The notes: generated by a model from the sequence alone, not told the origin. Numbered from the stretch's first letter, positions 45 to 23,906 are shown. The stretch is 64,000 nucleotides of DNA from Acidobacteriaceae bacterium (GCA_003166855.1 PMUM01000330.1:541-64540); one strand, 5' to 3'. Program-made: numbers and translations.

Positions 45-1442
45 TCAGGCATATGCATGTAATCCAGGCAATAAGTAGGTAACGCCGAAGAAGGTAAACA
101 TCACCACCGCGAATCCGAGGATGGCGAAGTAGGCCGCGCGGCGTCCGCGCCAGCCGCGGGTAATGCGCATGTGCAGGTAGCCCGCATACACCAGCCAAGT
201 AATCGCCGCCCACGTCTCTTTGGGATCCCAGTTCCAGTAGGACCCCCAGGCCCGGTTAGCCCAGTAGGCGCCGGCGGCGATCATCAGGGTGAGCAAGGGA
301 AAAGCGATGCAAATTGTCTTGTACGTGATGCGATCGAGCGCGTCGGCATCCGGCAGCAGTCGTTCGAGATCCTGGCGCCGCCAGAGAAGCAGCAGGTAAA
401 GCAGGTTGGCGAAGATACCGCCGACCAGCGCGGACAGAATGAAGGGGCTCGCGGACAGGCTGGTTGCGTATAACCCTTCCGCGTCGAGCGATGGATATTG
501 TCCGGCTCGTACGCGCAGCACGAAGAAGACTAACGCCAACGATTGCAGCAGAATACTGATGAAGACGGCGCGATCGGCAACCGCCAGCAAGCCTTCGTTC
601 TTCTTGAGGCGTGACAGAATGTAGAGCACCAGCGGAGCAGCCACAGCGGCGAAGACCAGCAGCATCAGCCAGCCGAGGTCGGGGATGGTGACGAACAACC
701 GCACGCCGCGTGAGACGAATACCTCCGCCTTATTCTCAGCGTCCCAGGCAATTACGTTGAAGCCGCCCCACTTCTCGAAGCGAGTCAGCACCGCGGCATA
801 AATTCCTACGGTGAAGATGCTGGTTGCCGCCAGGAATAATTCCGTCTTTACCTTGTCCTGGATCAGGAACATCATGGCCAGTGCAAAACTCAGGGCACAC
901 GCCGCATACGCCAGCATGGCGAGGGTTACGTGAACGTGCAGCCATGTAGATTGCAGCGCCGGCACCAACGGCCGCACTTCGCTGGGCAGAAGCTGCATCA
1001 GGATGACGCCGACAATCGCGACCGGCATGGTCACGGTGCCGATGACTTTTACACCGTACTTTTTCTCGGCTATGAGGGTGAGCGCGGCCAGGGTCCACAC
1101 GAAACTCAGCAGCATTTCATAGATGCTGGCGAACGGCGGATGTCCCGCTTCATACCAGCGATGCGCCACCGCCCCGGTATTGGCCAGCAGTCCCGCCCAC
1201 GTCATGAGAGAGGCGAACTTGATGTAAGCTTCCGTCCCGGTCACGCCGAAGCCGAGATACAGCGCTCCCGCGCCCCCGTAGAAGACCAGCGCGGCATAGA
1301 GCAGATTGGCCTCACTCAGAATGTTTCCGCTCTTCACCACATTCAGAAAAGCGATGAACAGCAGAAACGCAATTCCCAACCCCACCATGACGACCAGCGT
1401 TGTGCCGGTCGCGGGATGCTGTTCAACTTTTTCGCTTGCCAT
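45..1442 (-). CDS. ccsA: cytochrome c biogenesis protein CcsA/ResC (System II heme-handling membrane protein)
   Basis: 465-aa polytopic membrane ORF. Trp-rich WWD-type motif [14 protein letters not shown] with a following conserved His. GGAGGAAG Shine-Dalgarno upstream. Starts 21 nt downstream of the ResB-like gene. Confidence 0.9.
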
Positions 1443-1463
1443 ACACTTCCTCCGTAGCCGGAC

Positions 1464-2924
1464 TCACCGACCGGCGATTGATGTGGCTTGCTGGGCAGAG
1501 GCCACGAGTTCGGGTTTCAGTTCCTTCTTAATTTGCTCCACCACGTTCTTGAATCTAAGTTCGAATGCGTCGCGATTGCGATTCGCCGTGCCACCGATCC
1601 AAAGTGCGGTCCGGCCGCGCGCATCCACCACGGGAACGACCCAGAAGCGCATGTGAACCACGTAGAACACAAAGGTCAGGCCGATCGCCATCAGCACGAC
1701 GCCTGCCCATACTGCCCACTGGCCGGGTTCGTGCGAGACCTGCAGCCCGGTGTAAATGCCAGTCTTCAGGTCTTTGGGATCGAAAGTGTAGGGGGAGGAC
1801 GCATTCTCATCGATTCCCGGCATCTCGGGCAGCCACACGTTGACGCTAGCGTTGGCTTTCTTCGACGTCACGATCATGTGGACCGCGGGATTCGTGATGT
1901 CCTTGCTGCGTGCATAGACGTGACCGTCTTGCACTACGAAGTCGGGGATGAACTCCACAAGTTGCACGCTGGTGTCGGCATCAAGCGCCACCGTCTGGTT
2001 CATGCCTAAAGAGATTTCCTGCGGCGTGCCTTTCGCGCCGTTCGCTGGAGTCGCGTTCAGAATCAACTGATCGAGCTTCCCGGTGCGGCCGTAGCTGGCC
2101 TGGTAGAAGCGCAGTCCCTGATAGACCAGCGGATCGTTGACCACGATTTCTTTTCTCGAAACCTCGCGGCCGCCTTCGACCACGGCCAGCTTCGACCACC
2201 ATCGTTTCGGCGAGCCGTCGGCATAAGTTTCCTCGCCCGTGCCGTCGCAGCGAATCGAGAACGGAATGGTCCGCATGGCGCCATTTTTCGTCTCGATCTG
2301 GTTGCTCGATGTTCCCGGACTCAGCATCAGAAATCCGCGCCACCCGTAGAGCGAGTCGACGATGAAGCCCAGGAAAATCAGCAGCAGGCTGGCATGCACG
2401 ATGTAGACAGCCATCTCGGAGATGCGACTGCGCTCTGAGAACAAAGAGAAGCTATCCGTTCGTACTATCCGCTCCGTCTTCAGTCCCAGGTGCTTGAAGG
2501 CGCGCTCGGCTGCGCTCAATCCCTGCTCTTCATCGGCAACTGCAATATGCGCCTGCGTCGGCAGAACTTTGCGGAAACTTTCGTCGGGGCTCTTATAAGG
2601 ACGCGCGAAGTACCGCCAGGCATTGGGGAAGCGCTGCACCGACGCGGCGATGATGCTCAGGCTGACCAGAATCAGCATGGCGACAAACCAGCGCGTGTGA
2701 AAGATATCGGTGAGGCCCGTGGCGTCGAGAAAGCGCAGCATGGCGGGCGAGTACGCGCGCTGCATGTCGTCGGCATCGGTCATCGGACGTTGCAGGATGA
2801 CCGTCCCCGCCGCAGAGAAGATGACAACCAGAATGATCAGAACGACGCCGGTCTTGATGGAACTGAGCGTCTGCCAGATTCTGCGGGGCATAACGCTAAC
2901 AGCGGAGCGAAGTGACAGGGCCAT
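1464..2924 (-). CDS. ccsB: cytochrome c biogenesis protein ResB/CcsB (Ccs1)
   Basis: 486-aa ORF with an N-terminal TM (GVVLIILVVIFSAAGTVIL), a large soluble domain and C-terminal TM segments (AVWAGVVLMAIGLTFVFYVV). Architecture and position directly upstream of ccsA are typical of System II. Confidence 0.85.
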   Translation of the reverse strand: MALSLRSAVSVMPRRIWQTLSSIKTGVVLIILVVIFSAAGTVILQRPMTDADDMQRAYSPAMLRFLDATGLTDIFHTRWFVAMLILVSLSIIAASVQRFPNAWRYFARPYKSPDESFRKVLPTQAHIAVADEEQGLSAAERAFKHLGLKTERIVRTDSFSLFSERSRISEMAVYIVHASLLLIFLGFIVDSLYGWRGFLMLSPGTSSNQIETKNGAMRTIPFSIRCDGTGEETYADGSPKRWWSKLAVVEGGREVSRKEIVVNDPLVYQGLRFYQASYGRTGKLDQLILNATPANGAKGTPQEISLGMNQTVALDADTSVQLVEFIPDFVVQDGHVYARSKDITNPAVHMIVTSKKANASVNVWLPEMPGIDENASSPYTFDPKDLKTGIYTGLQVSHEPGQWAVWAGVVLMAIGLTFVFYVVHMRFWVVPVVDARGRTALWIGGTANRNRDAFELRFKNVVEQIKKELKPELVASAQQATSIAGR

Positions 2925-3101
2925 GACTTTCTCTTCCTCGCATAGTGCAATGCACGTTCCGCGCCAACATTCGGGGGCTGTGCCAAGTCCTGTGCGATCA
3001 ATGAGTTAAGGCAAGAACGATGCTCCGTGCGAGCCCCTTGCATGAGGCATAACACTCATCTCTAGAAGGTCCAATTGCGAATTCACGCACTGCCGGAAGT
3101 C

Positions 3102-3117
3102 TGTGATTTCAATCACA
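3102..3117. promoter_or_regulatory. perfect CRP/FNR-family type palindrome TGTGATTTCAATCACA (TGTGA-N6-TCACA)
   Basis: Read directly in the divergent ccsB / 16-heme cytochrome intergenic region. The half-site GTGATTTCA recurs at 3173-3181. Confidence 0.4.
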
Positions 3118-3338
3118 AATGGCTTGGAATCTAGCTGAAATGGAAACTCTGCTGGACGATGGACGAACGTGCGTGATTTCACCGACGAGGTGTGGCAGAA
3201 AGCCCATTCACGGGAGCTCAGATCCGGTTCGCGACAATTCTGGTCAGTCGGAGGTGTAAGTTAGAAGATGATTTGTTGCAATAATTTACAGTCCAATCAA
3301 GAACCGGCAGTTGTTTCCACATCGGTAAGGCGAGGATC

Positions 3339-4838
3339 GTGCACATGCATCGGTTGGCAATGGTCCCATCGTCCCAAAGCCGTCTTCATATGCACAGGAA
3401 AACCAGCATCGGTCGACCCCTCCCCCGTCTTCTCCAGTTGCTGGCGATTCTCGTTCTGATCGGGGCGATGCCCGCATTCGCCAAGGAGCATCCGGTTCCG
3501 CTCGACAAGAATGTCGACTCGGCGAAGTGTCTCGAGTGCCATGAGGACAAGTCGAAAGGCAAGGCGGTTCATTCCGCGATCGCCACGGGATGCTTGAGCT
3601 GTCACGAAGTTCGAGTGAACAAGGACATCACTCGCATCAAGCTGATCACCTCGACGCCGCAAGCGCTCTGCCTCAGTTGTCACGCCGATAAGGACGCCGC
3701 CACCTTGAAAGGGACGGTGCATCCCCCGGCTGTGCGCGATTGCATCAAGTGCCACGACCCGCACACAAGCGACAACAAAAATCAGTTGCTGAAGCCGGAG
3801 TCCGGCGACAAGGACCAGAATCTTTGCCTGACTTGCCACAAACAAGGATTAAACGTCCCAGAAAAAGGCAGTCGACACGCCGCTCTCGACATGGGATGCG
3901 ACACCTGCCACACGACTCACAAGACCGGCGAACCCGGCAAGGCTGAGTTCGATTTTCACCTGACCAAGAGTGCTCCAGCGCTTTGCATTGATTGCCACGA
4001 CGTCACGGACGCCAGCCTGCAGAAGGCGCATCACGATCAGCCCTTCGCTACGGCGGACTGCACCAGTTGCCACGATCCGCACCAGTCGGCTGTTCCGAAG
4101 CTGATGCGGCAGTTCCTGCATCCGCCGTTTGCCGACATGTCCTGCGAAACGTGCCATGCGCCGGCCAAGGACGGCAAAGTCGTGCTCGCGCAAGCCGACG
4201 TGAAATCGATCTGCGTGACCTGCCACAGCGACAAAGTCGAGAAGATCGAAAAGGCGAAAGTGCCGCACCCAGGAGCGGCGGGCGATTGCACCGACTGCCA
4301 CAATCCGCATGCCAGCCGCCAACCGGGCCTGCCCAAAACTAATGCGGTCGACATATGCCTGACCTGCCATACCGAACAGGCCGATCAAGGCAAGAAACAC
4401 TTTCTGCATCAGCCTGCATTCAAGCAGGGATGCGCCACCTGCCACGAGCCGCACGGCGGTGAGAACGATCATCTGCTGCGCGCCAAGACGGCGAATGCCC
4501 TCTGCCTCGAGTGCCACGGTCCAGATTCGCAGCCCAAGAAACTCGAAGCCGAGCATATGCTGACGATTTTCAACGGAAGTGTGCGGCTGCCCGAAGACTA
4601 CTTCTCGAAGAATAAAGTGGTCGTGCTCCCGCTGAAGTTCGGGCGTGGACATCCGATCGAGGGCCACCCGGTGTCCGATGTGCTGGACCCGACTGATATC
4701 ACGAAAATACACGCAAAAATTGACTGCCTGTCGTGCCACCAGCCGCATTCGTCAGCGCAGCCCGATCTGCTGTCGAAGGACCAAGTGAACAACGCTCAAT
4801 TCTGCGCCAGTTGTCACAAGGATCTAACCAAACGGTAA
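3339..4838 (+). CDS. multiheme c-type cytochrome, 16 CXXCH motifs, secreted
   Basis: I count 16 CXXCH motifs in 499 aa, many as CxxCH(D/N/E)PH. Signal-peptide-like LLQLLAILVLIGAMPAFA. Several in-frame Met at the N-terminus, so the exact start is uncertain. Confidence 0.9.
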   Translation: MHMHRLAMVPSSQSRLHMHRKTSIGRPLPRLLQLLAILVLIGAMPAFAKEHPVPLDKNVDSAKCLECHEDKSKGKAVHSAIATGCLSCHEVRVNKDITRIKLITSTPQALCLSCHADKDAATLKGTVHPPAVRDCIKCHDPHTSDNKNQLLKPESGDKDQNLCLTCHKQGLNVPEKGSRHAALDMGCDTCHTTHKTGEPGKAEFDFHLTKSAPALCIDCHDVTDASLQKAHHDQPFATADCTSCHDPHQSAVPKLMRQFLHPPFADMSCETCHAPAKDGKVVLAQADVKSICVTCHSDKVEKIEKAKVPHPGAAGDCTDCHNPHASRQPGLPKTNAVDICLTCHTEQADQGKKHFLHQPAFKQGCATCHEPHGGENDHLLRAKTANALCLECHGPDSQPKKLEAEHMLTIFNGSVRLPEDYFSKNKVVVLPLKFGRGHPIEGHPVSDVLDPTDITKIHAKIDCLSCHQPHSSAQPDLLSKDQVNNAQFCASCHKDLTKR

Positions 4839-4852
4839 TTTACATAAGGAGA

Positions 4853-6109
4853 ATGATGACCATGACCGAATTCAGCGCAAAGTTAAGCGATAGCCGCAAG
4901 GGGCGACTCGTCCTCTGTCTGATGCTCGGCCTGGCACTGCTTGCGCCCAGTTCTGCATTTGCGGATAAAAAAAAGAAGGCTGGCGATGCAAAGAAGATTC
5001 CGGTCATCGACTATTCGAACATTGTCTGGCCCAATCCGCCTGCCATCGCTCGCATCCGCTACACAGGTTTCTATGCTGCCGAAAAGATTTCGCAGGTCGA
5101 GGCGGGAAACGACAGCAAGAAAGCGAAGTGGATGGACCGCCTGGCGGGCACGCAGCCGCAGAGCGAAGCCAAAGTGCTGTACCAGCTCGCCGAACCGTAC
5201 GGCCTCGCCATCGATTCCAAGAACAATTTGTATATTGCAGATCAGAAGGTGGGCGCCATCTTCATCTTCAATACCGAGACGCGCGAGCTGGACATGATCA
5301 AGAACAAAGCTCACGCGCACTTCAACCGCATCATCGGGTTGGCCATGGACGATGGCGATCGTCTGTTTGTTTCCGATCCTGGCCTGCGCCACGTTCTCGT
5401 TTTCAATGCTGCCCACGTGGCCGAAGATGTGATTACCGAAGGAATCGTCAATCCTGGCGCGCTGGCGATCGATCGCGAGAACCGGCTGCTGTATGTCTCT
5501 GACATCGAACTCGATCAGGTGTTGGTGTACGACGCGGATTCGCTCAAACCGCTGCGCAAGATCGGCACCACCGGACATCACCACGAGCTCACCACCCCTG
5601 GGGATTTCGCAAGGCCCACCGGGCTGGCAGTGGATGCGGATGGCAACCTTTATGTCTGCGATACGCTGAACAACCGGGTCGAGATTTTTGACGCCGACGG
5701 AAAATTCGTCAGCACCTTCGGCAAGCCCGGCGACGGCCCGGGATACTTCTCGCGGCCCAAAGGCATTGCGATCGATGGCGACAACCATATCTGGGTCGCC
5801 GATGGCGTGCAGGACCGGGTGCAGGTGTACAACCAGGAAGGGCAGTTACTGATCTCGTTTGGCGGCCATGGCCTGCTGCCGGGGCAGTTCCAGGGCATCG
5901 TCAACATCGCGGCCGACAAGAACAATCGCATCTTCACCTCCGAGATCTATCCCGGAAGGGTGCAGCAATTCCGCTACGTCACCGATGCGGAGGCCGAGCA
6001 GGCCCGCAAGGACAAGGAAGAGCAGCGCGCGAAGAAAGCGGCGGGGAACAAAGAGGTCGTCCCCGTCACGCCTCCGGCGACCGAAGCCAAGAGCCCGCAG
6101 AGCAAGTAG
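4853..6109 (+). CDS. NHL-repeat six-bladed beta-propeller protein, secreted, with K/E-rich C-terminal tail
   Basis: Six blades of the type LY(I/V)xDxxxxR(V/I)xxF (LYIADQKVGAIFIFN ... IWVADGVQDRVQVYNQEGQ). Start moved to ATG 4853 (AAGGAG 1 nt upstream, signal peptide LVLCLMLGLALLAPSSAFA), because the track start 4733 overlaps the upstream cytochrome gene. Confidence 0.8.
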   Translation: MMTMTEFSAKLSDSRKGRLVLCLMLGLALLAPSSAFADKKKKAGDAKKIPVIDYSNIVWPNPPAIARIRYTGFYAAEKISQVEAGNDSKKAKWMDRLAGTQPQSEAKVLYQLAEPYGLAIDSKNNLYIADQKVGAIFIFNTETRELDMIKNKAHAHFNRIIGLAMDDGDRLFVSDPGLRHVLVFNAAHVAEDVITEGIVNPGALAIDRENRLLYVSDIELDQVLVYDADSLKPLRKIGTTGHHHELTTPGDFARPTGLAVDADGNLYVCDTLNNRVEIFDADGKFVSTFGKPGDGPGYFSRPKGIAIDGDNHIWVADGVQDRVQVYNQEGQLLISFGGHGLLPGQFQGIVNIAADKNNRIFTSEIYPGRVQQFRYVTDAEAEQARKDKEEQRAKKAAGNKEVVPVTPPATEAKSPQSK

Positions 6110-6110
6110 G

Positions 6111-6190
6111 CCCCCCTGTCATCCCCAGCATATCGAAGGACCTCAATTGGCGGCATAAAACACATTAGTCCTTCGCTCTGCTCAGGGGGG
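6111..6190. repeat. REP-like inverted repeat (family 1, GTCATCC..AGC..CGAAGGAC type) just after the NHL gene stop
   Basis: CCCCCTGTCATCCCCAGCATATCGAAGGAC ... GTCCTTCGCTCTGCTCAGGGGGG. The arms are complementary. Related to the copies at 8596-8665, 26617-26818 and 29112-29171. Confidence 0.6.
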
Positions 6191-6552
6191 CAACGTTGTG
6201 AATCCACGCGACTGTGCCAGCTGCTGCGATTTGCAACACACCTGCTGTGAACATCTGCAACTGAGGAATTTCACCAACCAACGTCGGCAGGTGGTTGTTT
6301 TCCCCCACTGAATGCGATTTTCCCGAATCGGAACGTAGGAGGAGAAGTGGATGTACGGGCTTTATATTCAATGACTTAGACGGAAAAATCTCCGAAATCG
6401 GAAACCCGCCTGTTTCGGGCGGCCAGTTGCACTTACATGGTCCGAGGGGCGGTTGCGACGAGTGCCCAGGCACAAAACGCAGCCCACGGCCTAAGCCTCT
6501 GGGAGTTCAGTAACAACTGGAAACACATCATTCATGGAGGTCGTGAAATTTT

Positions 6553-7467
6553 ATGAAGAAAGCGATGTTAGTTGTAATGTTCGTTCTAGCAGTCGGGGGC
6601 TTGGTGATGGCGCAGACTTGGTCATCGCCGGTTGACGTCCTCGGCGCACACAACAATAACGGACGCGGCTGCGCGGGCTGTCACTCGCCGCACAGCGGCT
6701 CTTTCGGTTCCGGCCACGCCGGCGCCGCCGATACTGGCAGCTATGCATTGTGGGGGCAGGATGCCAGCCCACTGTACGGTAAGACGATCGCATTTGGCGA
6801 CACCGGAAAGTACACCGAACTTCTGCCCTCCAGCATCTCCACGGGCAGCACCGAAGTCGGCGGCATTCTCCTTTGCCTGAGCTGCCATGACGGCAACGTC
6901 ACGGCCAGCAACATGATGGTCAACCAATCCTATGAACAGAGGATCGGCCTTCTGACCAATACCTCTTATGGGACGGGCAAGATTCCTACCCTGCTCGGTA
7001 ACGACGGCACGACGGCCGGCAACTACACCAACGACCACCCAGTGGGCCAGCTGGCTCTCATCAGCACTGGCAGCGGATTGGTCAACACCGCTGGCGTTCT
7101 GTCGGTAACCGCTGGCAGCCCCTATGCGCAGTTCGTAGCCAATTACGGGTGGCCGGCACTGGCCCCTGGCAAATGGTCGAGCCCCTACGGCGTCACCTCT
7201 ACAGGCGCGCCATATGTAGTTTGCACCACTTGCCACAACCAGCACGTGATGACGGTTTACACGTCCAGCGCTTCGAGCCCGATCGCGAACGACGGCGGCG
7301 GCAAGTACTATGCCACCTACTTCTTCGTGAACGGCCCCTACAATCCGAACATCAACAACGTGGCCAATGCGAACGCTCCTTCGACCACGCAGTTCTGCCG
7401 CCAGTGCCACTTTGGCGAGTCGAACGAAGCCAACAACACCAACAACATCACGACAGTATTCCAGTAG
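6553..7467 (+). CDS. tetraheme c-type cytochrome, secreted, low heme density (candidate filament/extracellular cytochrome)
   Basis: 4 CXXCH motifs (CAGCH, CLSCH, CTTCH, CRQCH) in 304 aa. 9 His in total, enough for bis-His ligation of 4 hemes. Signal peptide MKKAMLVVMFVLAVGGLVMAQ. G/S/T/N-rich. GGAGG about 13 nt upstream. Strong terminator directly downstream. Confidence 0.85.
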   Translation: MKKAMLVVMFVLAVGGLVMAQTWSSPVDVLGAHNNNGRGCAGCHSPHSGSFGSGHAGAADTGSYALWGQDASPLYGKTIAFGDTGKYTELLPSSISTGSTEVGGILLCLSCHDGNVTASNMMVNQSYEQRIGLLTNTSYGTGKIPTLLGNDGTTAGNYTNDHPVGQLALISTGSGLVNTAGVLSVTAGSPYAQFVANYGWPALAPGKWSSPYGVTSTGAPYVVCTTCHNQHVMTVYTSSASSPIANDGGGKYYATYFFVNGPYNPNINNVANANAPSTTQFCRQCHFGESNEANNTNNITTVFQ

Positions 7468-7487
7468 ACCTGGGATGATGTGCAAAA

Positions 7488-7517
7488 GGGGGAGAGGATT
7501 ACTCTCCCCTTTTTTTA
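7488..7517 (+). terminator. rho-independent terminator after the tetraheme gene
   Basis: GGGGAGAG-gatta-CTCTCCCC followed by a run of 7 T, about 20 nt after the stop codon. Confidence 0.8.
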
Positions 7518-7550
7518 CGAACACCGTATGAAGTTAGTAAGCGAGGAAAT

Positions 7551-8573
7551 ATGAAATACCAACTCCCCATCTGCGGTTTTCTGGCCCTGGCACTCTCGGC
7601 GGCATCGGCCCAAATGGCTTCACACTCGCCGACCGCGATCACGAACACGGCCTCTGCCCAGACCTCACCTCTGCAAGTGAGCGACAAGCCCGTGGCACGG
7701 GTGAACGGCGCAGTGCTGACCGATCGCGACCTGCTGCGCGAGATGTATATGATCTTTCCCTACGCGCAACAGCACAACGGATTCCCCAAGGCGCAGGAAG
7801 CAGAGATCCGCCAAGGTGCGCTGGAGATGATCATTTTCGAGGAACTTGTCTACCAGGAAGCGGTGCGGCGCAAGCTGACGATCTCGCCAGAGAAATTGAA
7901 TCGCGCCCAGGCTGATTTTCGTGGCCAGTTCAAGAGTCCCGACCAGTACCAGCAATACCTGCAAACTGAAATGCAGGGTTCCGAGCAAAAATTGCGCCAG
8001 CAGATGAGGCGCTCATTGCTCATCGAGCAAGTCCTGAAGACCGACGTGGAAGATAAGTCCGCCGTTTCATTGGCTGAAGTACAGGCGTACTACGCCAAGA
8101 ATCCGGCGAAGTATCAACAGGGAGAGACATTCACATTCCAGAGTATTTCAGTAGTGCCTCCGCTGAAAGACACTCCCGAGCAGGCGAAGCAAGCTCGCGG
8201 CAAGGCTGAGGACGCGCTGCGCCAGGCCAAGGCGACGAAGAGTTATCAGGATTTCGGATTGTTGGCGGAAAAGATCTCCGAGGACGATTTCCGGGTGAAC
8301 ATGGGCGACCACAAAGTTGTTCCGGCGGACAAGCTACCGCCCCAGGTTGTGAAAGCTTTGCAATCCATGCCAGCAGGACAGGTCAGCGGATTGATTCAGA
8401 TTGAGAGTGCCTTCACGATCATTCGCCTGAATGCCCATACTGCGCCGCGCAAGAAGCCGCTGTCCGAGGTCAAGACCGAACTGAAGACCAATTTGCAGAA
8501 GAGCAAATACGAGAAACTGCGTTCGAACCTTGCGAAGCAATTGCGTTCCAAAGCCAAGATTGAAATGGTGTAG
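7551..8573 (+). CDS. peptidyl-prolyl cis-trans isomerase, SurA/PpiD-like with parvulin (PpiC) domain, periplasmic
   Basis: Signal peptide (ICGFLALALSAASAQ), helical SurA_N-like N-terminal part, and a parvulin-like segment MPAGQVSGLIQIESAFTIIRLN. GAGGAA Shine-Dalgarno. Confidence 0.8.
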   Translation: MKYQLPICGFLALALSAASAQMASHSPTAITNTASAQTSPLQVSDKPVARVNGAVLTDRDLLREMYMIFPYAQQHNGFPKAQEAEIRQGALEMIIFEELVYQEAVRRKLTISPEKLNRAQADFRGQFKSPDQYQQYLQTEMQGSEQKLRQQMRRSLLIEQVLKTDVEDKSAVSLAEVQAYYAKNPAKYQQGETFTFQSISVVPPLKDTPEQAKQARGKAEDALRQAKATKSYQDFGLLAEKISEDDFRVNMGDHKVVPADKLPPQVVKALQSMPAGQVSGLIQIESAFTIIRLNAHTAPRKKPLSEVKTELKTNLQKSKYEKLRSNLAKQLRSKAKIEMV

Positions 8574-8595
8574 TCCCTAAACTTTTTTGTCTTGT

Positions 8596-8665
8596 CATCC
8601 TGAACGAAGTGAAGGATCTATGTACTCTCGGGAAAGTACATAGATCCTTCACTTCGTTCAGGATG
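8596..8665. repeat. perfect 31-bp-stem hairpin (REP family 1); probable transcript-end structure after the PPIase gene
   Basis: CATCCTGAACGAAGTGAAGGATCTATGTACT, an 8-nt loop, then the exact reverse complement. It generates the mirrored pseudo-ORFs 8470..8652 and 8609..8791. Confidence 0.7.
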
Positions 8666-8813
8666 GCAGCGCTAATTTGCGGGTCGGTTTCACTGTTGTG
8701 TGTTCCAACTCGGAGGCCGGGTGATATGCCGCACCTGTCCCGAAAATCCCCCTCCGTGGCAGTTGTAAATCCCCTGTTTTCAATTGATTAGAAATCGGAA
8801 AGATCATTGCCTT

Positions 8814-8829
8814 TGGCAATCGTTGTGCC
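8814..8829 (+). promoter_or_regulatory. sigma54-like -24/-12 element TTGGCAATCGTTGTGC
   Basis: GG-N10-GC spacing is correct: TGGCAa / gTGC versus the consensus TGGCAC-N5-TTGCW. Lies about 50 nt upstream of the beta-barrel gene ATG. Confidence 0.35.
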
Positions 8830-8878
8830 TAACCACATGTAAGTACGAGGCGGTTTCTAGTCGGAAGGGCAGAGCCTA

Positions 8879-10732
8879 ATGAAGGCAGCGAATCGAATCA
8901 TCGGATTAGCAATACTGATGATGGCGCAACTTATATGCGCCCAAAGCGTGCCCCAGTCCCAGACCCCAGAACTCTCGATTGGCGAAAACACAAAGCTGAG
9001 CGCCGGCGGCCTGTTCACCTTCGGATACAGTGGAGATTATGGCGACGTCATTCCCTCCGACCACGGACTGACATTCGGAGTTGACGGCAAGCTCTCCGGT
9101 TATTACTACAATCCCAACTTTATTTCATTCACGGCATCGCCGTACTACAACCAGTCGCGGGCCGATTCCAGCTATCAATCGCTGACTGGGGCGAGCGGCG
9201 TCAGTGCGACAGCCAACCTCTTCAGCGGCAGCCATTTTCCGGGATCGGTGAGCTACCGCTATGACCGGAACAGCAGCGGGACGTTTGGTCTGAGCGGGCA
9301 GCCCAACTTTACGACCATCGGAAAGGGCGATGGTTTCGCTGTCAACTGGAGCGCCCTGCTTCCGAATCTGCCCACTCTTTCTGTTGGATATTCGCAAGGC
9401 GATGGCAGTGGCACGATTTATGGAACCAGCGAAGAAACAACGACGAGCACGAGACTGTTCAATGTGCGCTCCGGCTATCAGATCGCGGGATTTCGGCTGA
9501 ACGCTTTTTACGACCGCAACAGCTTGAACTCAAAATTTCCGGAATTCCTGTCAGGCCAGTCGGAATCGGTGCAGGACTCAACTGGCCACGACGTGGGAGT
9601 TGGAGCGCAACACGCTCTGCCCCTTCACGGCCAGTTTTATGCGAACTACAACCGATCGTCGGCCGAGAGCAACTACTTCTCAGATACGGGACAGAGTTCC
9701 AACGTCTCGAACTATACCGACGATATCGTAAACACCGGCGCGAGTTTTCATCCCACGCAGAAACTATCACTGAATGTCACCGAGAATTACACGAGCAACC
9801 TGAATGGATATCTTGCCCAGAGTTTGAGCAGTAACGGAACCGCACAGCCTGGAATCAGCTTGGGGACCGGGGCGCATTCCTCGACCATAGGCGGTGGCGC
9901 GACCTACCAGTTCACGAATTTTCTTTCGGCGTCATCGCAGGCCACCTATTACGACCAGGAATATTTCGGGAAGAGCTACACCGGAACTTACTTGAGCGGC
10001 ACGGTGAACTACGGTAAGCGGCTGTGGGATATGTTCACGTTCTCCGGCTCGGTGGTGGACAGCAGCAACGGCCAGGGGACCAACGCCTTGGGGTTCATTG
10101 GCAATGTGAATTTCTTTCACCGTTTCAAGGGCTGGCAGACATCAGGCGTATTCAGTTATGCCCAGAATGTGCAGTCGTTGCTGGTGACGTATACGAGCTC
10201 GTACTACAGCTACAGTGTGAATTTGCATCGCCGTTTGCCTGCCGGGTTGACCTGGACGGCGGCGTTCAACGGAACCCGCAGCGGTCTGACGAACTACCAG
10301 GGAACGAGCAGCCAGGGGGAAGGTTATTCGACGTCGCTTAGCTCGCGGAGGTTCGCTGTTACCGGTAATTACACACAGTCGACGGGGATCTCGCTGCTCG
10401 GCGCTGGCGGATTCGTGCCGGTTTCAGGAACACCCGGCGTGACTGATTTCATTACCTTTGGCGGATCAAGTTACGGCGGTGGCATTTCGGCAACCCCGAT
10501 CCGGCGGCTTGTCATCGCGGGGAGTTTTAGTCGCGCTATCAGCAATACGATTGGTGAGACGATCTCGCACAACAATACCGAAATCTACAATGCCCAGTTG
10601 CAGTACCATCTACGCAGGATCGGACTGCAGGCTGGGTACACGCGCTTCACGCAGGGCATCAGCGCGGTGGGAGCGCCAGCCAACACGACATCTTATTTTG
10701 TGGGTATCTCCAGATGGTTCGACTTCTTCTAG
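8879..10732 (+). CDS. outer-membrane beta-barrel protein (porin-like), no heme sites
   Basis: Signal peptide MKAANRIIGLAILMMAQLICAQS. The mature part has no Cys, is S/T/G/N/Y-rich with alternating hydrophobic residues, and ends ...YFVGISRWFDFF (aromatic C-terminus typical of BAM-assembled barrels). Confidence 0.6.
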   Translation: MKAANRIIGLAILMMAQLICAQSVPQSQTPELSIGENTKLSAGGLFTFGYSGDYGDVIPSDHGLTFGVDGKLSGYYYNPNFISFTASPYYNQSRADSSYQSLTGASGVSATANLFSGSHFPGSVSYRYDRNSSGTFGLSGQPNFTTIGKGDGFAVNWSALLPNLPTLSVGYSQGDGSGTIYGTSEETTTSTRLFNVRSGYQIAGFRLNAFYDRNSLNSKFPEFLSGQSESVQDSTGHDVGVGAQHALPLHGQFYANYNRSSAESNYFSDTGQSSNVSNYTDDIVNTGASFHPTQKLSLNVTENYTSNLNGYLAQSLSSNGTAQPGISLGTGAHSSTIGGGATYQFTNFLSASSQATYYDQEYFGKSYTGTYLSGTVNYGKRLWDMFTFSGSVVDSSNGQGTNALGFIGNVNFFHRFKGWQTSGVFSYAQNVQSLLVTYTSSYYSYSVNLHRRLPAGLTWTAAFNGTRSGLTNYQGTSSQGEGYSTSLSSRRFAVTGNYTQSTGISLLGAGGFVPVSGTPGVTDFITFGGSSYGGGISATPIRRLVIAGSFSRAISNTIGETISHNNTEIYNAQLQYHLRRIGLQAGYTRFTQGISAVGAPANTTSYFVGISRWFDFF

Positions 10733-11832
10733 ACGATCGAGGCAGAGCGGTGGTCCGCAGCGGACTGGCTCTTGCCGGGCTGACGGTTGCGCTCGCGCTG
10801 TTGCTGGCGTCCCCTGCAGACGCGGCGAAGCGTCCGAAGGAGATGGTCGCACCCTCCGCACCCGACTTGCTGATGGACGGCGGGCGCAAGCTCTCATTCG
10901 AGCGCAGCTTCAGCCTGGAGCGCGAGGTCAAGCCCAAGCGCAGTTTCTGGACCCGTGTGGTCGACGTGATCGCGGGCCTGCCCGATTTTCATTATCTGGT
11001 AAGCCCCTACAGTGTGGTCACCGATTCACGCGGGCGCATCATCGTTACCGATGTAGCGGCGTCTGGCGTGCACATCTTCGACTTCGAGCAGCAGAAATAT
11101 AAATTCCTCTCGCGGCGCGATGCGAGGAAGGATCCCATGCTCACGCCGCAATGCGTGGCCGTCGATGCCCAAGACAATATCTACGTAACTGATTCGCAGG
11201 CGGGCAAGGTTTTTGTGTTCGATGCGAATGGCAAGTATCGCCGCGCGATTGGCAGCTTGAAAGGTGGCGAAGGATATTTCAAGCGTCCCACGGGCATTGC
11301 CGTGGATTCCGCGGCCCAGCGCATTTACGTTACCGACACGCTTCGTAACAAGATTTTCATGATGGACATGCAGGGCAGCGTGCTGCAGACCATCGGAAAG
11401 ACGGGCGCCGGCGACGGCGAGTTCAACTATCCCACCGAACTGCGGCTGCATGGACAGGATTTGGCGGTGGTCGACGCCATGAATTTCCGGGTGCAGGTGT
11501 TCGACCGCTCCGGCACCTTCCGCTACGCCATCGGCAAGGCTGGGGACGGCGCGGGATGGATCTTCCGGCCCAAAGGCATCGGCTTTGATTCCGAATCGCA
11601 CTTGTATGTGGTCGATGGAGCTTGGGGCGTGGTGCAGGTCTTCGACGAACAGGGGCAGTTGCTGTATTACTTCGGCGGAAAAGGAACCGGGGCAGAACAG
11701 TTTCAACTGCCCACGGGACTGCAAATTGACAATCACGACCGCATATACGTGGTCGACTCCTTCAACCGTCGCGTCCAAGTGTTTCACTACTACGGCGTCA
11801 CGCAGGCGGCCGACGGGAGGAAGCAACCGTGA
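10714..11832 (+). CDS. NHL-repeat six-bladed beta-propeller protein, secreted
   Basis: Six blades (IIVTDVAASGVHIFD, IYVTDSQAGKVFVFDANGK, IYVTDTLRNKIFMMDMQG, LAVVDAMNFRVQVFDRSG, LYVVDGAWGVVQVFDEQGQ, IYVVDSFNRRVQVFHY). An alternative GTG start at 10750 has GAGG upstream and would remove the 19-nt overlap with the barrel gene. Confidence 0.8.
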   Translation: MVRLLLDDRGRAVVRSGLALAGLTVALALLLASPADAAKRPKEMVAPSAPDLLMDGGRKLSFERSFSLEREVKPKRSFWTRVVDVIAGLPDFHYLVSPYSVVTDSRGRIIVTDVAASGVHIFDFEQQKYKFLSRRDARKDPMLTPQCVAVDAQDNIYVTDSQAGKVFVFDANGKYRRAIGSLKGGEGYFKRPTGIAVDSAAQRIYVTDTLRNKIFMMDMQGSVLQTIGKTGAGDGEFNYPTELRLHGQDLAVVDAMNFRVQVFDRSGTFRYAIGKAGDGAGWIFRPKGIGFDSESHLYVVDGAWGVVQVFDEQGQLLYYFGGKGTGAEQFQLPTGLQIDNHDRIYVVDSFNRRVQVFHYYGVTQAADGRKQP

Positions 11833-13745
11833 AGCCGCTCCTGTCACTGGCATGCCTGTTCGTCGTCGCGCAGAGTTTTGCCCAGGTGCAGCCCAACGGG
11901 GATGTGCTGGGCATGCACAACCTGTCTTTGTCCAGTGGCGCGTCGGTCTATTCGCAGGGGAGTCTTGGTTGCACGTTTTGCCACGCTCCGCACAGTGGAT
12001 TGGGCGGCAACACCCCGCTCTGGAATCAGAAGCTGTCGCAGAAGTCGTACGTGCCTTACAGCAGCACCACCGATCCGAATCTGGGCAACACGCAGCCCAC
12101 GCTGGGAGTCACCAGCAGTCTGTGCCTGAGTTGTCATGACGGAACCGTGGCCGTCGGACAGTCCGCGGCTTACGGACAGTTGCCGACGGTCGGATCGCTG
12201 AATGCGGCTGATTCCTTCGGCACTACCCTGACCGGCTCGCACCCGTTCAGCCTGGTCATCCCGCTGAAAGATGCTTCCAACCTGGTTGCTTCGCTGGCCT
12301 CGCAAGGCAAGACGGCCGATCCTACTGGAGCAGTGAAACTGATTAAAGGCAACATCGAATGCACGAGTTGCCACAGTCCACACGTTCAGAACATCGACAG
12401 GATTGCGCAGAATTTTCTGGTGCGCGACAGTTCCAACGCGCAGATGTGTCTGGCGTGCCACGATCCGACGCGCGTGGTGCAGGGACAGGTCAATCCGCTG
12501 GCTGGATTCACCAATAGCATCCATCAGACCGCCACGAATCAGGTTTCCCCCGACGCGCACGCCGGTGCGTACGCCACCGTTGGTGTGAACGCCTGCACGT
12601 CGTGCCACATGTCGCACGATTCGGTCGCTCCGGCCCGCCTGCTTCGGCCGGCGGTACCCTCGGCCCCGTCGTATGATCCGGTCACGCAGAGTTGCATGAC
12701 TTGCCACGGCGGAGGCACCTATCTGGCGCCGGCAATTCCCAACATCATGGCCGAGGTGGCGAAGGTCAGCCATCCCATGCCTTCGGGAAATAACTTCCAC
12801 GATGCCGGCGAAACGCCGCTGCTGAACAACAACCGGCACGCCACTTGCGTGGATTGCCCCAGCGCGCACGCGTCCAATCCGGAGTTGCAGTTTTCCGCGC
12901 CACCCACCATTCGTCCGCCGCAGTCTGGCGCAACCGGCATCAGTGCCCTCGACGGCATCACCGCGATCATTCCAGCCGTCAATCAATACGAAACCTGTCT
13001 GCGTTGTCACGGAACCAGCATCGGCAAGCAGCGGATGGTGATTTACGGTTACGCGCCCATTCGAGTCGTCACGGCTCCAGATTCGTTGAACATCATCCCG
13101 GAACTCGCCTCGACGGCGACGTCGAGCCATCCGGTGACTCACACTCGTTCCAGTCCACTGCCGCAACCCAGCCTGCTGGTGAACATGCTCGACGAGAAGG
13201 GACTGGCATCGGCGCGCCTGGTCGGTACTCAGATCTTCTGTACCGACTGCCACAACAGCGACGACAACCGGGAGTTCGGTGGCGCCGGACCGAATGGTCC
13301 GCATGGGTCGATCAACTCGCACATTCTGGAGCGCAACTATCAGTTCAGCCAGGCGGCCGTCCCTGGCGGACCGGTCACGAATCTTTTCCCCAATCCCGAT
13401 ACCAGCGTCGCCGGCCCTTACTCGATGTGCGCGAAGTGCCACGATCTCACTCAAATCTTCGCGAACACCAGCTTTCCGCAGCACAATCTGCATTCCTATC
13501 AGTATGGGTTCAGCTGCTCGGTCTGCCACACTGCACACGGAAATGGAACCACGTCACCCACTATCACCGGCGAGCGCTTAGTGAATTTCGACGCCAACGT
13601 CGTCGGCGCGAACGGCGCCGCTCCCATCGCTTACAACCACGGCACCAATACCTGCACGCTGATGTGCCACTCCGCCGCCCACAATTCGGATGGAACTGTG
13701 ACCTCGACTGCACCGTCGGTGAAACCTAAAGGGAAAGCGAAGTGA
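11829..13745 (+). CDS. multiheme c-type cytochrome, 10 canonical CXXCH plus one CX3CH and one degenerate CXXCP site, secreted
   Basis: GTG start overlaps the NHL gene stop (GTGA). Signal peptide MKPLLSLACLFVVAQSFAQ. CXXCH counted by eye at 10 positions, plus CTLMCH near the C-terminus and CVDCPSAH at residues 340-347. Confidence 0.9.
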   Translation: MKPLLSLACLFVVAQSFAQVQPNGDVLGMHNLSLSSGASVYSQGSLGCTFCHAPHSGLGGNTPLWNQKLSQKSYVPYSSTTDPNLGNTQPTLGVTSSLCLSCHDGTVAVGQSAAYGQLPTVGSLNAADSFGTTLTGSHPFSLVIPLKDASNLVASLASQGKTADPTGAVKLIKGNIECTSCHSPHVQNIDRIAQNFLVRDSSNAQMCLACHDPTRVVQGQVNPLAGFTNSIHQTATNQVSPDAHAGAYATVGVNACTSCHMSHDSVAPARLLRPAVPSAPSYDPVTQSCMTCHGGGTYLAPAIPNIMAEVAKVSHPMPSGNNFHDAGETPLLNNNRHATCVDCPSAHASNPELQFSAPPTIRPPQSGATGISALDGITAIIPAVNQYETCLRCHGTSIGKQRMVIYGYAPIRVVTAPDSLNIIPELASTATSSHPVTHTRSSPLPQPSLLVNMLDEKGLASARLVGTQIFCTDCHNSDDNREFGGAGPNGPHGSINSHILERNYQFSQAAVPGGPVTNLFPNPDTSVAGPYSMCAKCHDLTQIFANTSFPQHNLHSYQYGFSCSVCHTAHGNGTTSPTITGERLVNFDANVVGANGAAPIAYNHGTNTCTLMCHSAAHNSDGTVTSTAPSVKPKGKAK

Positions 13746-13939: not shown

Positions 13940-14165
13940 ATTACCTCAGGTTGCGATGTGTATCTGCGCCCGTACTTCGTTTTTCCGCGGCATAACATGT
14001 TCCGCTTTCAAGCGGAACATAGCATGCACGGGGACCGGCAGGGCTGGATGATTTTCGATCTGACGCTGTGGTTAGGCCTACGGAATCGGATCGAGTCCAG
14101 CCCTGTATCGCGAAAGCCGCAATTTGCCGCTATTTGAAGGACAGATCCTCGGGAACGATCGAACC

Positions 14166-15851
14166 ATGCCTACACCTGCAGAGCCCGTACCCACCAAGAG
14201 CGAACGCCACAACCCCGTAAGGCGGTATGGGCTGCAAATCGCCAGCGCCATTGTGGTGCCTCTGGTGCTCTTGGGTGTGATCGAGGGCGCGTTGCGCCTG
14301 TTCGGCGTCGGCTTTCCCACGGAACTGACAGTGCCTTGCACTCTGCGGGGCAAGCCTGCTGCCTGCTACAACCTGTTTTTTCCCGCGCCTTTCTTCCCGC
14401 CGGGCATGATCAAGACCCCGCAAGCGTATGCGATTCCAGCGGAGAAAACGCAGGGCACCTTCCGCATCTTTGTGCTCGGGGAGTCCGCGGCCATGGGCGA
14501 TCCGGATCCGGCCTACGCTTTCAGCCGGTACCTCGACGTGATGTTGCGGGAACGTTTCCCGTCGATGAAGTTCGAGGTCGTGAACACCGGGAGCGTAGCC
14601 ATCAACTCTCACGTGCTTCTGCCGATCGCGAAGGGTCTCGCGGAACAGCATCCCGACCTGTTCATCATCTACTCAGGCAACAATGAAGTCGTGGGACCCT
14701 ATGGACCCGGGACCGCGCTGACCACGTCCGGCATGAGCCTGCCGGTCATCCGCACCAGCATCTTCGTCCGCTCCACCCGCATCGGCCAGTTCCTCACCAA
14801 GGTCGGAACTCAAAAGAAAGAATGGCGCGGGATGGAGATGTTTCTCGACAAGCAGGTGCGGGAGAGTTCGCCACTCATGCAGTATTCGTACGCCAACTTC
14901 GAGCAGAACCTGCGGGACACCGTTGCCGTTGCGCACAATTCCGGCACCCGAGTCATTATCAGCACCGTCGCCACCAATCTGAAAGACTGCGGACCGTTCT
15001 CATCTCTGCACCGCGAGAACTTGGGTCCTGACGACTTGCGTTCGTGGACAACGCTTGTGCAGCAGGGAGCGGACCTGGAGAGCACTCGCTACTACGCCGA
15101 TGCCCTGAAGGCCTACCAGGCGGCGACCAAGATCGATGACCAGTACGCCGAGTTGGAATTTCGCATTGCCCGGAGCCTGTGGATGCAGGGAGATTATGCG
15201 AGCGCGAAACAGCATTACCTTCGCGCTCGCGATCTCGACACGCTACGCTTCCGCGCCGACACCAGAATCAATGACATCAATCGCTCGGTTGCGTCCTCGT
15301 CTCCGGGCGCAGAACTCGTGGACGCCGATGCCATCTTTTCCAAAGAAAGCCCGAACGGGATCATTGGCAGTGAACTTGTGTATGAGCATGTCCACATGAC
15401 TCCCCTCGGCAATTATCTGCTCGCTCGGGCGATGTTCTTACAGATAGCGAGCAAGTTGCCATCCGAGGCCGGACATCCCTTGACGGAAGCCGACGTTCCC
15501 TCTCAAGCAGAGTGCGAGCAGTTCCTGGCGTTCACCGGCCATGACCGTTCCCGCATCGCGACGGAAATGCTGGATCGCTTGCAGAAGCCGCCTTTTACCA
15601 ATCAACTGAACCACTCCGATCAAATCTTGCGCTTGATGCTCAAATCGCAGGAGCCTGCGGAAAATCCCGATGAAACTGCCGCCGAGTACGAGTGGGCGAT
15701 CCGGAAGAATCCGGGCGACCCAGTCTTGCATTACAACTACGGACTTTTCCTCTTCGAGCACAACCGCAATGCCGCGATCCAACAGCTGAGCTTGTCCCGC
15801 CCATGGGATGGATTTCCAGTTTTTACGCCGGACGGGATGCCCGTGCCATAA
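14166..15851 (+). CDS. SGNH/GDSL-like (DltD/AlgX-like) membrane-anchored protein with TPR repeats
   Basis: N-terminal TM (IASAIVVPLVLLGVIEGAL). FRIFVLGESAAMGDP and IIYSGNNEV blocks resemble SGNH blocks I and III. TPR-like YADALKAYQAATKIDDQYAELEFRIARSLWMQGDYASAKQHY. The track ORF begins at TTG 14124; I use the first ATG. Confidence 0.6.
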   Translation: MPTPAEPVPTKSERHNPVRRYGLQIASAIVVPLVLLGVIEGALRLFGVGFPTELTVPCTLRGKPAACYNLFFPAPFFPPGMIKTPQAYAIPAEKTQGTFRIFVLGESAAMGDPDPAYAFSRYLDVMLRERFPSMKFEVVNTGSVAINSHVLLPIAKGLAEQHPDLFIIYSGNNEVVGPYGPGTALTTSGMSLPVIRTSIFVRSTRIGQFLTKVGTQKKEWRGMEMFLDKQVRESSPLMQYSYANFEQNLRDTVAVAHNSGTRVIISTVATNLKDCGPFSSLHRENLGPDDLRSWTTLVQQGADLESTRYYADALKAYQAATKIDDQYAELEFRIARSLWMQGDYASAKQHYLRARDLDTLRFRADTRINDINRSVASSSPGAELVDADAIFSKESPNGIIGSELVYEHVHMTPLGNYLLARAMFLQIASKLPSEAGHPLTEADVPSQAECEQFLAFTGHDRSRIATEMLDRLQKPPFTNQLNHSDQILRLMLKSQEPAENPDETAAEYEWAIRKNPGDPVLHYNYGLFLFEHNRNAAIQQLSLSRPWDGFPVFTPDGMPVP

Positions 15852-15867
15852 GAACGTCTACCTGTGC

Positions 15868-17346: not shown

Positions 17347-17474
17347 ACCGAGGTGCGCGGGAGACCAGCTTTTGACACGCCCGCCGAAGACAGCGAACCA
17401 GAATAGCGAACCAGAATAAAGGTCTGATTCGCCAGTTACAAGAACACTCGCCTCCCTGGATGCAATAATGTTGC

Positions 17475-19166: not shown

Positions 19167-19181
19167 GAGGGGAATCTCCCC

Positions 19182-19433
19182 ATGACCGACGAAGCGCAGC
19201 AAATGGTCCAACACATTGTTCAACTCATTCGAAAGCCGGGCGTGAACCTGGACGAGAATACCCCGCTGGTTTCGTCGGGACTGATCGATTCGATGTCCCT
19301 GATCGATTTGCTGGTGAAGCTCGAGGACCTCACCCACATGCGTATTCCGGCAGGGAAGGTGCAACCCAAGGATCTGGATACCGTGGCAAAAATGTTTGCG
19401 ACCGCGCAGCGGGTAGGGAAGCCTCGCAAGTAA
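19182..19433 (+). CDS. acyl/peptidyl carrier protein (DltC-like)
   Basis: 83 aa with the phosphopantetheine attachment motif GLIDSMSLIDLLVKLE. AGGAGG Shine-Dalgarno. 15 nt after the ligase gene. Confidence 0.8.
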   Translation: MTDEAQQMVQHIVQLIRKPGVNLDENTPLVSSGLIDSMSLIDLLVKLEDLTHMRIPAGKVQPKDLDTVAKMFATAQRVGKPRK

Positions 19434-21744: not shown

Positions 21745-21978
21745 AGTTCTTCCTTTAGGATTCCAGGTCGTAAACCTCCGATATGGCACGCGTGGTTCCA
21801 TCTTCATTCAACATTCAATCCTTGCATACCCTTGTTTTTACAATGACTTACGAGGAGGACCTTGGCGCTGAGAGATGCGCCTACGTTTGAGCTCGGGGCT
21901 TTCTTCGCAGTTTCTGCGCTTTTTTCCCGCGACCTCGCAGGACCAGGCAATTTCCCTCCAAGTCAAATCACATTCTTG

Positions 21979-23894: not shown

Positions 23895-23906
23895 TGGAGG
23901 ACCTTA

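Follow-up and report, generated by a model that had tools for sequence, protein, structure and literature searches.

The DNA considered here, referred to throughout as the window, is a 64,000-nucleotide stretch from an Acidobacteriaceae bacterium (GCA_003166855.1 PMUM01000330.1:541-64540). It contains seven co-directional + strand open reading frames (ORFs), designated g1 to g7, that encode three multiheme cytochromes (g1, g3, and g7), two NHL-type beta-propellers (g2 and g6), a peptidyl-prolyl isomerase (PPIase; g4), and a large beta-barrel (g5). The features of the window are collected in Table 1. It seems fairly probable that these genes are the acidobacterial counterpart of the omcE-type nanowire cluster and encode an apparatus by which respiratory electrons cross the outer membrane and leave the cell. 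A function in extracellular electron transfer is likely, and filament formation by g3, as read from its sequence, is plausible. What the present analysis adds is the link to omcE clusters, a g3/g4 module that includes an attenuator, and a possible role for g7 at the base or tip of a filament.

An earlier note on this DNA had described seven co-directional secreted proteins with at least 30 CXXCH motifs, head-to-head with System II cytochrome-maturation genes. The ORFs were found where it had placed them, and the motif counts and the Pfam and NCBIfam matches agreed with its description. CXXCH motifs numbered 16 in g1, 4 in g3, and 10 in g7 (plus one CX3CH), for a cluster total of 30. Among the ORFs beyond 19 kb, the motif was present only in one further cytochrome (7 motifs; 23907-24617); because it is near-absent from the other long ORFs of the window, the enrichment in the cluster was not attributed to chance. 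Sec-type signal peptides were read by eye on all seven products. In public gene calls, g1 starts at 3390 (ATG, 482 aa) and g6 at 10750 (360 aa). At least 24 metagenome contigs carry the exact window proteins, and the named homologs at 81–86% identity are designated Candidatus Sulfotelmatobacter sp. or Terriglobales bacterium. With taxonomy taken from these homologs, the source is predicted to be a peat or soil Acidobacterium close to Candidatus Sulfotelmatobacter. Public data held more than 4,700 g3-type, more than 5,300 g7-type, and about 1,060 g5-type sequence clusters.

Table 1. Features of the window, with strand and basis of assignment where available.
Feature	Position	Strand	Basis or remark
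CcsA-type System II cytochrome c synthase subunit (NCBIfam name "CcsB")	45-1442	-	PF01578, E 2.6e-48; TIGR03144, 248 bits (cutoff 188)
ResB/CcsB System II heme-handling protein	1464-2924	-	PF05140, E 2.3e-79; divergent from g1
g1, 16-heme periplasmic MtrA/DmsE-family cytochrome (predicted)	3390-4838	+	16 CXXCH; start 3339 in the earlier note
g2, NHL/DUF5128 six-bladed beta-propeller with Lys/Glu-rich C-terminal tail	4853-6109	+	Pfam NHL and DUF5128
Conserved leader, probably a 5' untranslated region, own promoter further upstream	6443-6552	+	Near-identical in the window, L090, and L095
g3, OmcE-family tetraheme cytochrome, candidate polymerizing filament subunit	6553-7467	+	Family profile vs 9yuq and 7tfs
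Intrinsic terminator or attenuator directly 3' of g3	7488-7518	+	Best terminator-like site in the region
g4, secreted SurA_N + parvulin PPIase	7551-8573	+	PF13145, PF13624
g5, large outer-membrane beta-barrel of about 26 strands (predicted), ending ...WFDFF	8879-10732	+	AlphaFold2 model
g6, NHL/DUF5128 beta-propeller	10750-11832	+	Pfam; orthologue-level relative of the omcE-cluster propeller; start 10714 in the earlier note
g7 residues 1-213, complete OmcE-like tetraheme module	11829-12467	+	Family profile covers whole OmcE
g7 C-terminal extension, 6-8 further hemes	12468-13745	+	PF22113 overlap, residues 177-343
Tetratricopeptide-repeat (TPR) protein	14124-15851		Weak SGNH/non-GDSL lipase match
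MBOAT acyltransferase	15868-17346	-	
AMP-binding enzyme	17475-19166		
Phosphopantetheine carrier protein, 83 aa	19182-19433		
CcmH-like TPR protein	21091-21807	-	
568-aa protein	22188-23894		Weak M48 peptidase match
7-heme cytochrome	23907-24617		Paired CXXCH
GT2 and PMT_2 (GT39-like) glycosyltransferases	26825-29038	-	
Two unusually large OEP/TolC-family proteins, 730 and 686 aa	29316-33697	-	

Sequence profiles place g3 and the N-terminal module of g7 in the OmcE family, whose two solved members are extracellular heme filaments. Profiles were relied on for g3 because a coil-rich cytochrome modeled without its hemes yields no useful information. The g3 profile was made from g3 and 45 diverse homologs, all full-length members having four hemes and 276–377 aa. 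Searched against the PDB, it matched 9YUQ, the OmcE filament bundle of Desulfuromonas soudanensis (E 2.6e-11), and 7TFS, the OmcE filament of Geobacter sulfurreducens (E 0.0018). The g7 family profile matched the same entries over g7 residues 1–213 (7tfs, E 6.3e-25; 9yuq, E 3.9e-20). After these two, PDB matches of either profile appeared only at E >= 0.005, and neither profile matched OmcS, OmcZ, or the archaeal filament cytochromes. OmcE was reached by the family profiles only; PDB searches with the single sequences of g3 and g7 returned nothing. For comparison at the residue level, both OmcE sequences were rebuilt from PDB alignments. C40/H44, C108/H112, C224/H228, C282/H286, H47, H162, and H231 were invariant in g3, in the N-terminal part of g7, and in both solved OmcEs. 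The fourth distal His, H33, was present in all sequences of the joint alignment but misaligned. The N-terminal module of g7 keeps all eight heme ligands, and it is directly similar to g3 (E 7e-7).

About 110 bases upstream of g3 are near-identical in locus L095 despite a different upstream gene, and this leader matched no Rfam family; nor did a search of the whole window with Rfam give a match. Upstream of the leader, the 443-base gap between g2 and g3 (6110-6552) holds blocks common to the window, L090, and L095, e.g. GCTGCTGCGATTTGCAACAC and TTTTCCCCCACT, which may serve as promoters or operators. These conserved blocks matched neither a sigma-70 nor a sigma-54 consensus, nor any Rfam family. 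A GC-rich hairpin with a U-tract behind it immediately follows the stop codon of g3 in five of the five loci examined (z-scores -2.0 to -3.9), with stems that differ in sequence in L097 and L098. A sigma-70 promoter scan showed no enrichment. Sigma-54 promoters were also sought, since relatives have a sigma-54 activator and a histidine kinase encoded at the flanks of the cluster; 35 matches were obtained vs. 35 expected, none of them upstream of g1, g3, or g5. Because g3 has its own leader and terminator, it may be made in excess as a structural subunit, and because g5, g6, and g7 are adjacent or overlapping, their products would be made stoichiometrically as a complex.

Against L097, the lowest identities in the cluster are those of g3 (33%) and g5 (32%), which thus evolve fastest; the others lie at 48–62%. 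Such rates are compatible with g3 and the barrel loops being exposed at the surface, and Geobacter surface cytochromes have been reported to evolve fastest (PMC12977616). An initial impression that g3 is unusually conserved was rejected: it came from top matches that were all >=81% identical. All cluster proteins are 72–83% identical to those of L090, and g3 is among the least conserved vs. distant relatives. The gene context of the distant g3 representatives P0398 and P0365 consisted of short contigs only.

A g4 homolog lies directly downstream of the g3 homolog in the window, L090, L095/L096, L097, and L098. In L095/L096 (Terriglobales), the pair (10001-12015; g3 homolog 83% identical) is beside hypF, hypC, hypD, and hypE; genes for a barrel, a propeller, or g7 are absent from its vicinity. 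The tetraheme cytochrome and the PPIase were therefore treated as one unit, since the pair stands alone in other Terriglobales contigs. From this arrangement, g4 is a candidate dedicated foldase or chaperone paired with g3.

In g7, the OmcE-like module is followed by an extension of about 425 residues. PF22113 (MtrC/MtrF domain II/IV-like) matched g7 residues 177–343 with 50 bits (cutoff 30), a span that includes the end of the module and the start of the extension; TIGR03507, the OmcA/MtrC decaheme family, was not matched by g7. The CX3CH motif is CTLMCH. A degenerate 12th site, CVDCPSAH (codon CCC, Pro344), is located at 12846-12869, where more than 90% of the family has CVDCHSAH. Because Pro344 replaces the His of that motif, this heme site would have no proximal His. 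It was not taken for a read error, as the NCBI protein P0241 is 100% identical over the BLAST alignment. The g7 orthologs of L090, L097, and L098 have 11 CXXCH motifs (10 in the window), and those of L097 and L098 also have one CX3-4CH. The start of g7 overlaps the stop of g6 by 4 bases, and g5 and g6 are adjacent or overlapping, depending on the g6 start.

The cluster was compared with that of omcE. The smallest omcE clusters always comprise two multiheme cytochromes, two beta-propeller lipoproteins, OmcE, and a large beta-barrel, beside resB/ccsB (Petersen 2025, bioRxiv 10.1101/2025.10.22.684050). The window holds every item of this list: cytochromes g1 and g7, propellers g2 and g6, the OmcE-type g3, and barrel g5. 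Five omcE loci were fetched from metagenomes, and L086, which has the canonical Geobacter-type omcE order, served as the reference locus. Its order is purD, purE, resB, ccsB, a 9-heme cytochrome, an 8-heme cytochrome, a propeller lipoprotein, OmcE, a 746-aa barrel, and glycosyltransferases. Common to the window and the omcE clusters are an OmcE-family tetraheme with all eight heme ligands, two homologous NHL-type propellers, one or more heme-dense MtrA-like periplasmic cytochromes, a large outer-membrane barrel, and a resB/ccsB neighbor. Glycosyltransferase (GT) and TPR genes also lie further downstream in both (GT2 and PMT_2 at 26.8–29 kb of the window); GT2, GT4, and GT39 genes are found downstream of freshwater omcE clusters, and OmcE is glycosylated (Petersen et al. 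2025). The differences are several. The window is from Acidobacteriota, a phylum not included among the five in which OmcE homologs are listed (Petersen 2025), and its g3, with about 70 additional residues, represents a separate subfamily. The cluster includes a PPIase of its own, and one cytochrome is an OmcE module joined to about 425 residues with 6–8 more hemes. The barrel family is unrelated in sequence, the propellers are not lipoproteins, and resB/ccsA is divergent, whereas resB/ccsB in the omcE clusters is co-directional.

The propellers carry part of this likeness. The identity of g2 to the omcE-cluster propellers is 28–31% (E 1e-32 to 9e-44), and that between g2 and g6 is 31%. Over its full length, g6 matches the propeller lipoproteins of L086 (35% identity, E 3e-52) and L089 (37%, E 3e-69), and it is the best-conserved gene of the cluster (62–68% identity to L097 and L098). 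The NHL/SGL type of their Pfam matches includes lactonases and other enzymes, which would suit a strictly periplasmic multiheme redox module in which the propellers are enzymes and the barrel is an ordinary substrate channel. That g5 is in no family and that the localization of the proteins is predicted only are likewise compatible with such a module. It was considered very unlikely, given the specific homology to nanowire subunits and to nanowire-cluster propellers, the seven-gene synteny that is kept in relatives, and the lack of a catalytic-subunit gene within the cluster.

The earlier note had called the apparatus undescribed, but the g5-g6-g7 triad has already been reported under the name EET1, a porin-NHL-CytC core found in 49 metagenome-assembled genomes (MAGs) of peat Acidobacteriota and transcribed at depth (Fiorito 2026, bioRxiv 10.64898/2026.05.27.727921). 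The cytochrome of EET1 is OmcE-like and has 13 hemes; its AlphaFold3 model was matched to OmcE with a template-modeling (TM) score of 0.70 (Fiorito 2026). An MtrB-like porin without a domain match, a DUF5128 NHL propeller, and an OmcE-like multiheme protein of the "cytochrome c3 family" correspond to g5, g6, and g7, and both the Terriglobales lineage and the peat setting are shared. Compared by description rather than by sequence, EET1 and g5-g6-g7 are very probably the same system. They differ in that EET1 is defined in the preprint as a three-gene core, in which the propeller is termed a scaffold; its text and supplements make no mention of the tetraheme g3, the PPIase, the 16-heme g1, or a homology to omcE or osc clusters. 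The view that Acidobacteriota have no characterized equivalent held, in that none had been characterized experimentally in the literature searched. Locus L089 (43% GC) has a like triad at 266-5102, composed of a 673-aa barrel, a propeller lipoprotein, and a 593-aa, 11-heme OmcE-fusion that is 32% identical to g7 over its full length. No separate tetraheme gene accompanies this triad; 8-, 7-, and 18-heme cytochromes and a second propeller follow it. Because of this locus, the OmcE-fusion family is not confined to Acidobacteriota.

The single Cys of g5 is in its signal peptide, so the mature protein is Cys-free, and the AlphaFold2 model (mean predicted local distance difference test [pLDDT] 64, predicted TM-score 0.46) is all-beta with 26 long strands; both agree with the Cys-free 617-aa barrel described earlier. 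The C-terminal residue is aromatic, as is typical of outer-membrane proteins. The model supports the fold class of a very large outer-membrane barrel. MtrB (chain 6r2q_B) was the top match of a Foldseek search (E 1.3e-6, TM 0.32), with LptD and TonB-dependent receptors close behind. A specific relationship between g5 and MtrB was thus not supported: the TM-score is 0.32 and other large barrels score nearly as well. No Pfam or NCBIfam family, MtrB_PioB included, was matched by g5 at E <= 0.01. Its sole profile signal was a marginal one to the positionally equivalent barrel of L089 (E 0.016–0.083). Orthologs of g5 in L097 and L098 have 32–35% identity.

The sequence of g1 passed the curated cutoff of TIGR03508, the MtrA/DmsE decaheme family (201.1 bits vs. 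192.2), with 16 hemes rather than 10, and it matched the MtrA chain 6r2q_A (E 1.1e-23). The heme-dense cytochromes in the OscI position of omcS loci were matched at E 6e-94, and those of the cluster matched their counterparts in Desulfuromonadia omcE clusters at E 1e-18 to 1e-43. All 16 hemes are retained in the L097 ortholog. The cluster has three points in common with the MtrCAB complex of Shewanella (PDB 6R2Q): the MtrA/DmsE-family g1, the roughly 26 strands of g5, and the MtrC domain II/IV-like stretch of g7. It departs from MtrCAB in that g1 has 16 hemes vs. 10, g5 fails the MtrB_PioB profile, and g7 is not of the OmcA/MtrC family; Mtr also has no propellers, PPIase, or OmcE-type subunit.

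These points of likeness make a non-filamentous conduit of the Mtr/Pcc type a serious rival, in which g1 would thread g5, g7 would be the terminal reductase at the surface, g3 a monomeric shuttle, and the propellers scaffolds. That g1 passes the DmsE/MtrA cutoff and matches MtrA is as expected of such a conduit, as are the top structural match of g5 to MtrB, its 26 strands (as in MtrB), the stretch of g7 above the Pfam cutoff for the MtrC/MtrF domain, and the tight coupling of g5, g6, and g7. The L089 triad has no separate tetraheme gene, and the triad is the conserved core in the 49 MAGs. However, the OmcE ligand set is complete in g3 and in the N-terminal part of g7, and every structure solved in the OmcE family is a filament; its own leader and terminator give g3 what would be the expression signature of a subunit made in excess; and g5 is outside the MtrB_PioB Pfam family. 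A conduit and a nanowire are, moreover, compatible rather than exclusive. As a complete account of the cluster, a conduit alone is possible but rather improbable.

Conservation of the gene neighborhood, to which the earlier note had looked, was found in several relatives. L090–L092 (g5 73% identical) keep the histidine kinase, ccsA, resB, g1–g7, the TPR protein, the MBOAT, the AMP-binding enzyme, and the carrier protein. In L097, the exact g1–g7 order is kept at only 33% g3 identity, and L098 keeps g3–g7; the g3–g7 order thus holds at 33–42% g3 identity. The ccsA-type gene is syntenic in relatives. In L097, genes for a Rieske protein, cytochrome b, and a 9-heme cytochrome (4412-7180) are directly upstream of the g1–g7 orthologs and co-directional with them, and a monoheme cytochrome c follows the g7 homolog. 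The Rieske/cytochrome b/9-heme set is a plausible quinol-oxidizing entry point, and the whole block resembles a complete quinol-to-surface pathway in one operon-like unit.

The same parts might be run inward, with Fe(II), reduced humics, or a partner cell as the electron source, or might serve detoxification as a periplasmic electron sink. Mtr/Mto-type conduits (MtoAB, PioAB) work in both directions, the sequence does not fix the direction, and in another Terriglobales genome the g3-g4 pair is beside hypFCDE. The Rieske/cytochrome b genes upstream in L097 fit either direction. Electron uptake was nonetheless judged quite unlikely: the peat transcript data have been read as anaerobic respiration (Fiorito 2026), and no Cyc2-type or other typical iron-oxidation marker was seen in the window.

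The earlier note had proposed for the cluster an apparatus like that of the omcS/omcE companion genes. This stood in part: g3, the g7 N-terminal module, the g2 and g6 propellers, and g1 have homologs there, but the closest known system is the omcE cluster rather than osc. With the OmcS sequence from the PDB, 78 omcS loci were fetched. An NHL/DUF5128 propeller like g2/g6 was located just upstream of omcS in about 51 of the 78 (E 1e-10 to 1e-15), and a g1-like cytochrome was present at E < 1e-5 in 40. A PPIase matching g4 was found in 22 of the 78 at E <= 1e-3, seven of them at E < 1e-5. No g5 homolog was found in any of the 78. There is no OmcS-like protein in the cluster, and g3 had one marginal match in the 78 loci (E 3.5e-4). 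The equation of OscD with an NHL propeller proved wrong, because the gene in the OscD position of Citrifermentans bremense L035 encodes a 7-bladed propeller of the YncE/lactonase type. OscH at that locus combines SurA_N_3 and Rotamase_2.

According to a paper that cites Shen et al. (2025), OscH functions in folding, OscEFG in secretion, and OscD in morphology. The osc cluster of Geobacter resembles that of the window in having an NHL/DUF5128 propeller beside the filament gene, a PPIase with SurA_N and rotamase domains (OscH), an OscI that is periplasmic, very heme-dense, and homologous to g1, and a large barrel-like protein. It differs in that its filament subunit, OmcS, is a hexaheme protein without sequence similarity to g3, and in the 7-bladed, YncE-type OscD; the cluster of the window has no detectable OscE/F/G homolog. 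Two further observations concern OmcS. The best OmcS match in species-representative genomes is 67% identical, and no Geobacter sulfurreducens record is among the 80 loci kept. In L072, from an "uncultured Acidobacteriota" MAG, an OmcS homolog (52% identical, six CXXCH) is preceded by an NHL propeller (8395-11194); OmcS-type clusters therefore also occur in Acidobacteriota.

If the cluster is an omcE-type nanowire system, electrons from quinol would pass to the 16-heme g1 in the periplasm, which would enter, or dock beneath, the roughly 26-strand barrel of g5. Together, g5, g6, and g7 would form a stoichiometric membrane complex, in which g7 displays its OmcE module and its MtrC-like multiheme domain on the cell surface. 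The g3 subunit would be transcribed in excess. With g4 assisting its folding, it would leave through g5 or alongside it and polymerize head to tail by His-heme ligation between subunits, as OmcE does. The filament might then have the OmcE module of g7 as its base or cap. Likely acceptors would be Fe(III) minerals, or particulate organic matter and humics in peat. A bolder version of this scheme is a heteromeric nanowire: the g7 OmcE module, seated on a g5/g6 pore, would nucleate or cap the g3 homopolymer, the g7 extension would provide solvent-exposed hemes, and g4 would be a prolyl isomerase specific to the subunit. In this full form, the scheme is doubtful. No filament base or tip is encoded in the known omcE operons (Petersen et al. 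2025).

A number of observations weigh against assigning the cluster to the omcE-type nanowires. The AlphaFold2 monomer of g3 has a pLDDT of 70, with the N-terminal half below 50, and a Foldseek search of this model against the PDB gave no match at E <= 0.001. Filaments have not been observed for any protein of the g3 subfamily, and OmcE-like tetrahemes are widespread, with polymerization not required of all (Petersen et al. 2025). The localization of every cluster protein is predicted from signal peptides read by eye, and neither g2 nor g6 has a lipobox, unlike the Desulfuromonadia propellers. In the window, no quinol dehydrogenase adjoins the cluster, and the direction of electron flow is fixed by nothing in its sequence. 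The Foldseek matches of g5 (E 1e-6 to 1e-5, TM 0.18–0.44) barely tell large barrels apart. Compared by hmmsearch --max and hhalign, with narrow and broadened profiles, g5 showed no detectable homology to the omcE-cluster barrel or to osc proteins. The hhalign probabilities were <3% for the omcE-cluster barrel and <1% for the osc 752-aa, 375-aa, and 580-aa families, vs. 95% between the omcE-cluster barrel and the osc 752-aa protein, which are thus mutually related. The proposal that g5 is an OscEFG-type channel component was therefore not supported. As for the proposed kinship of g4 with OscH, the common SurA_N_3 + Rotamase_2 architecture was borne out, but OscH is about twice the size of g4 and is no closer to it (E 2e-9) than are generic SurA-type PPIases (E 2e-17).

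Terriglobales and Candidatus Sulfotelmatobacter are among the most abundant bacteria of peat and acidic soils, and how anaerobic carbon oxidation is balanced in bogs without inorganic electron acceptors is an open question. Should the cluster produce filaments of the OmcE type, nanowires made of cytochromes would be a common trait in soils and not peculiar to Geobacter, and there would be a concrete molecular handle on how humics and particulate organic matter are respired in peat. If the heteromeric nanowire were true, a filament base or tip would be identified, and Terriglobales would be nanowire producers that respire particulate organic matter. The folding, export, anchoring, and termination of insulated cytochrome filaments are still unanswered matters (Petersen et al. 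2025); the subunit, dedicated PPIase, barrel, propeller, and OmcE-fusion would offer a compact parts list for studying them.

Directly downstream of g7 is a Dlt-like set (14124-19433) composed of the TPR protein, the MBOAT acyltransferase, the AMP-binding enzyme, and the carrier protein. It is syntenic in L090; because it is absent from L097 and L098, it is probably outside the cytochrome system. A second small cytochrome locus (21091-24617) contains the CcmH-like protein, the 568-aa protein, and the 7-heme cytochrome. The GT2 and PMT_2 genes are followed by those of the two OEP/TolC-family proteins.

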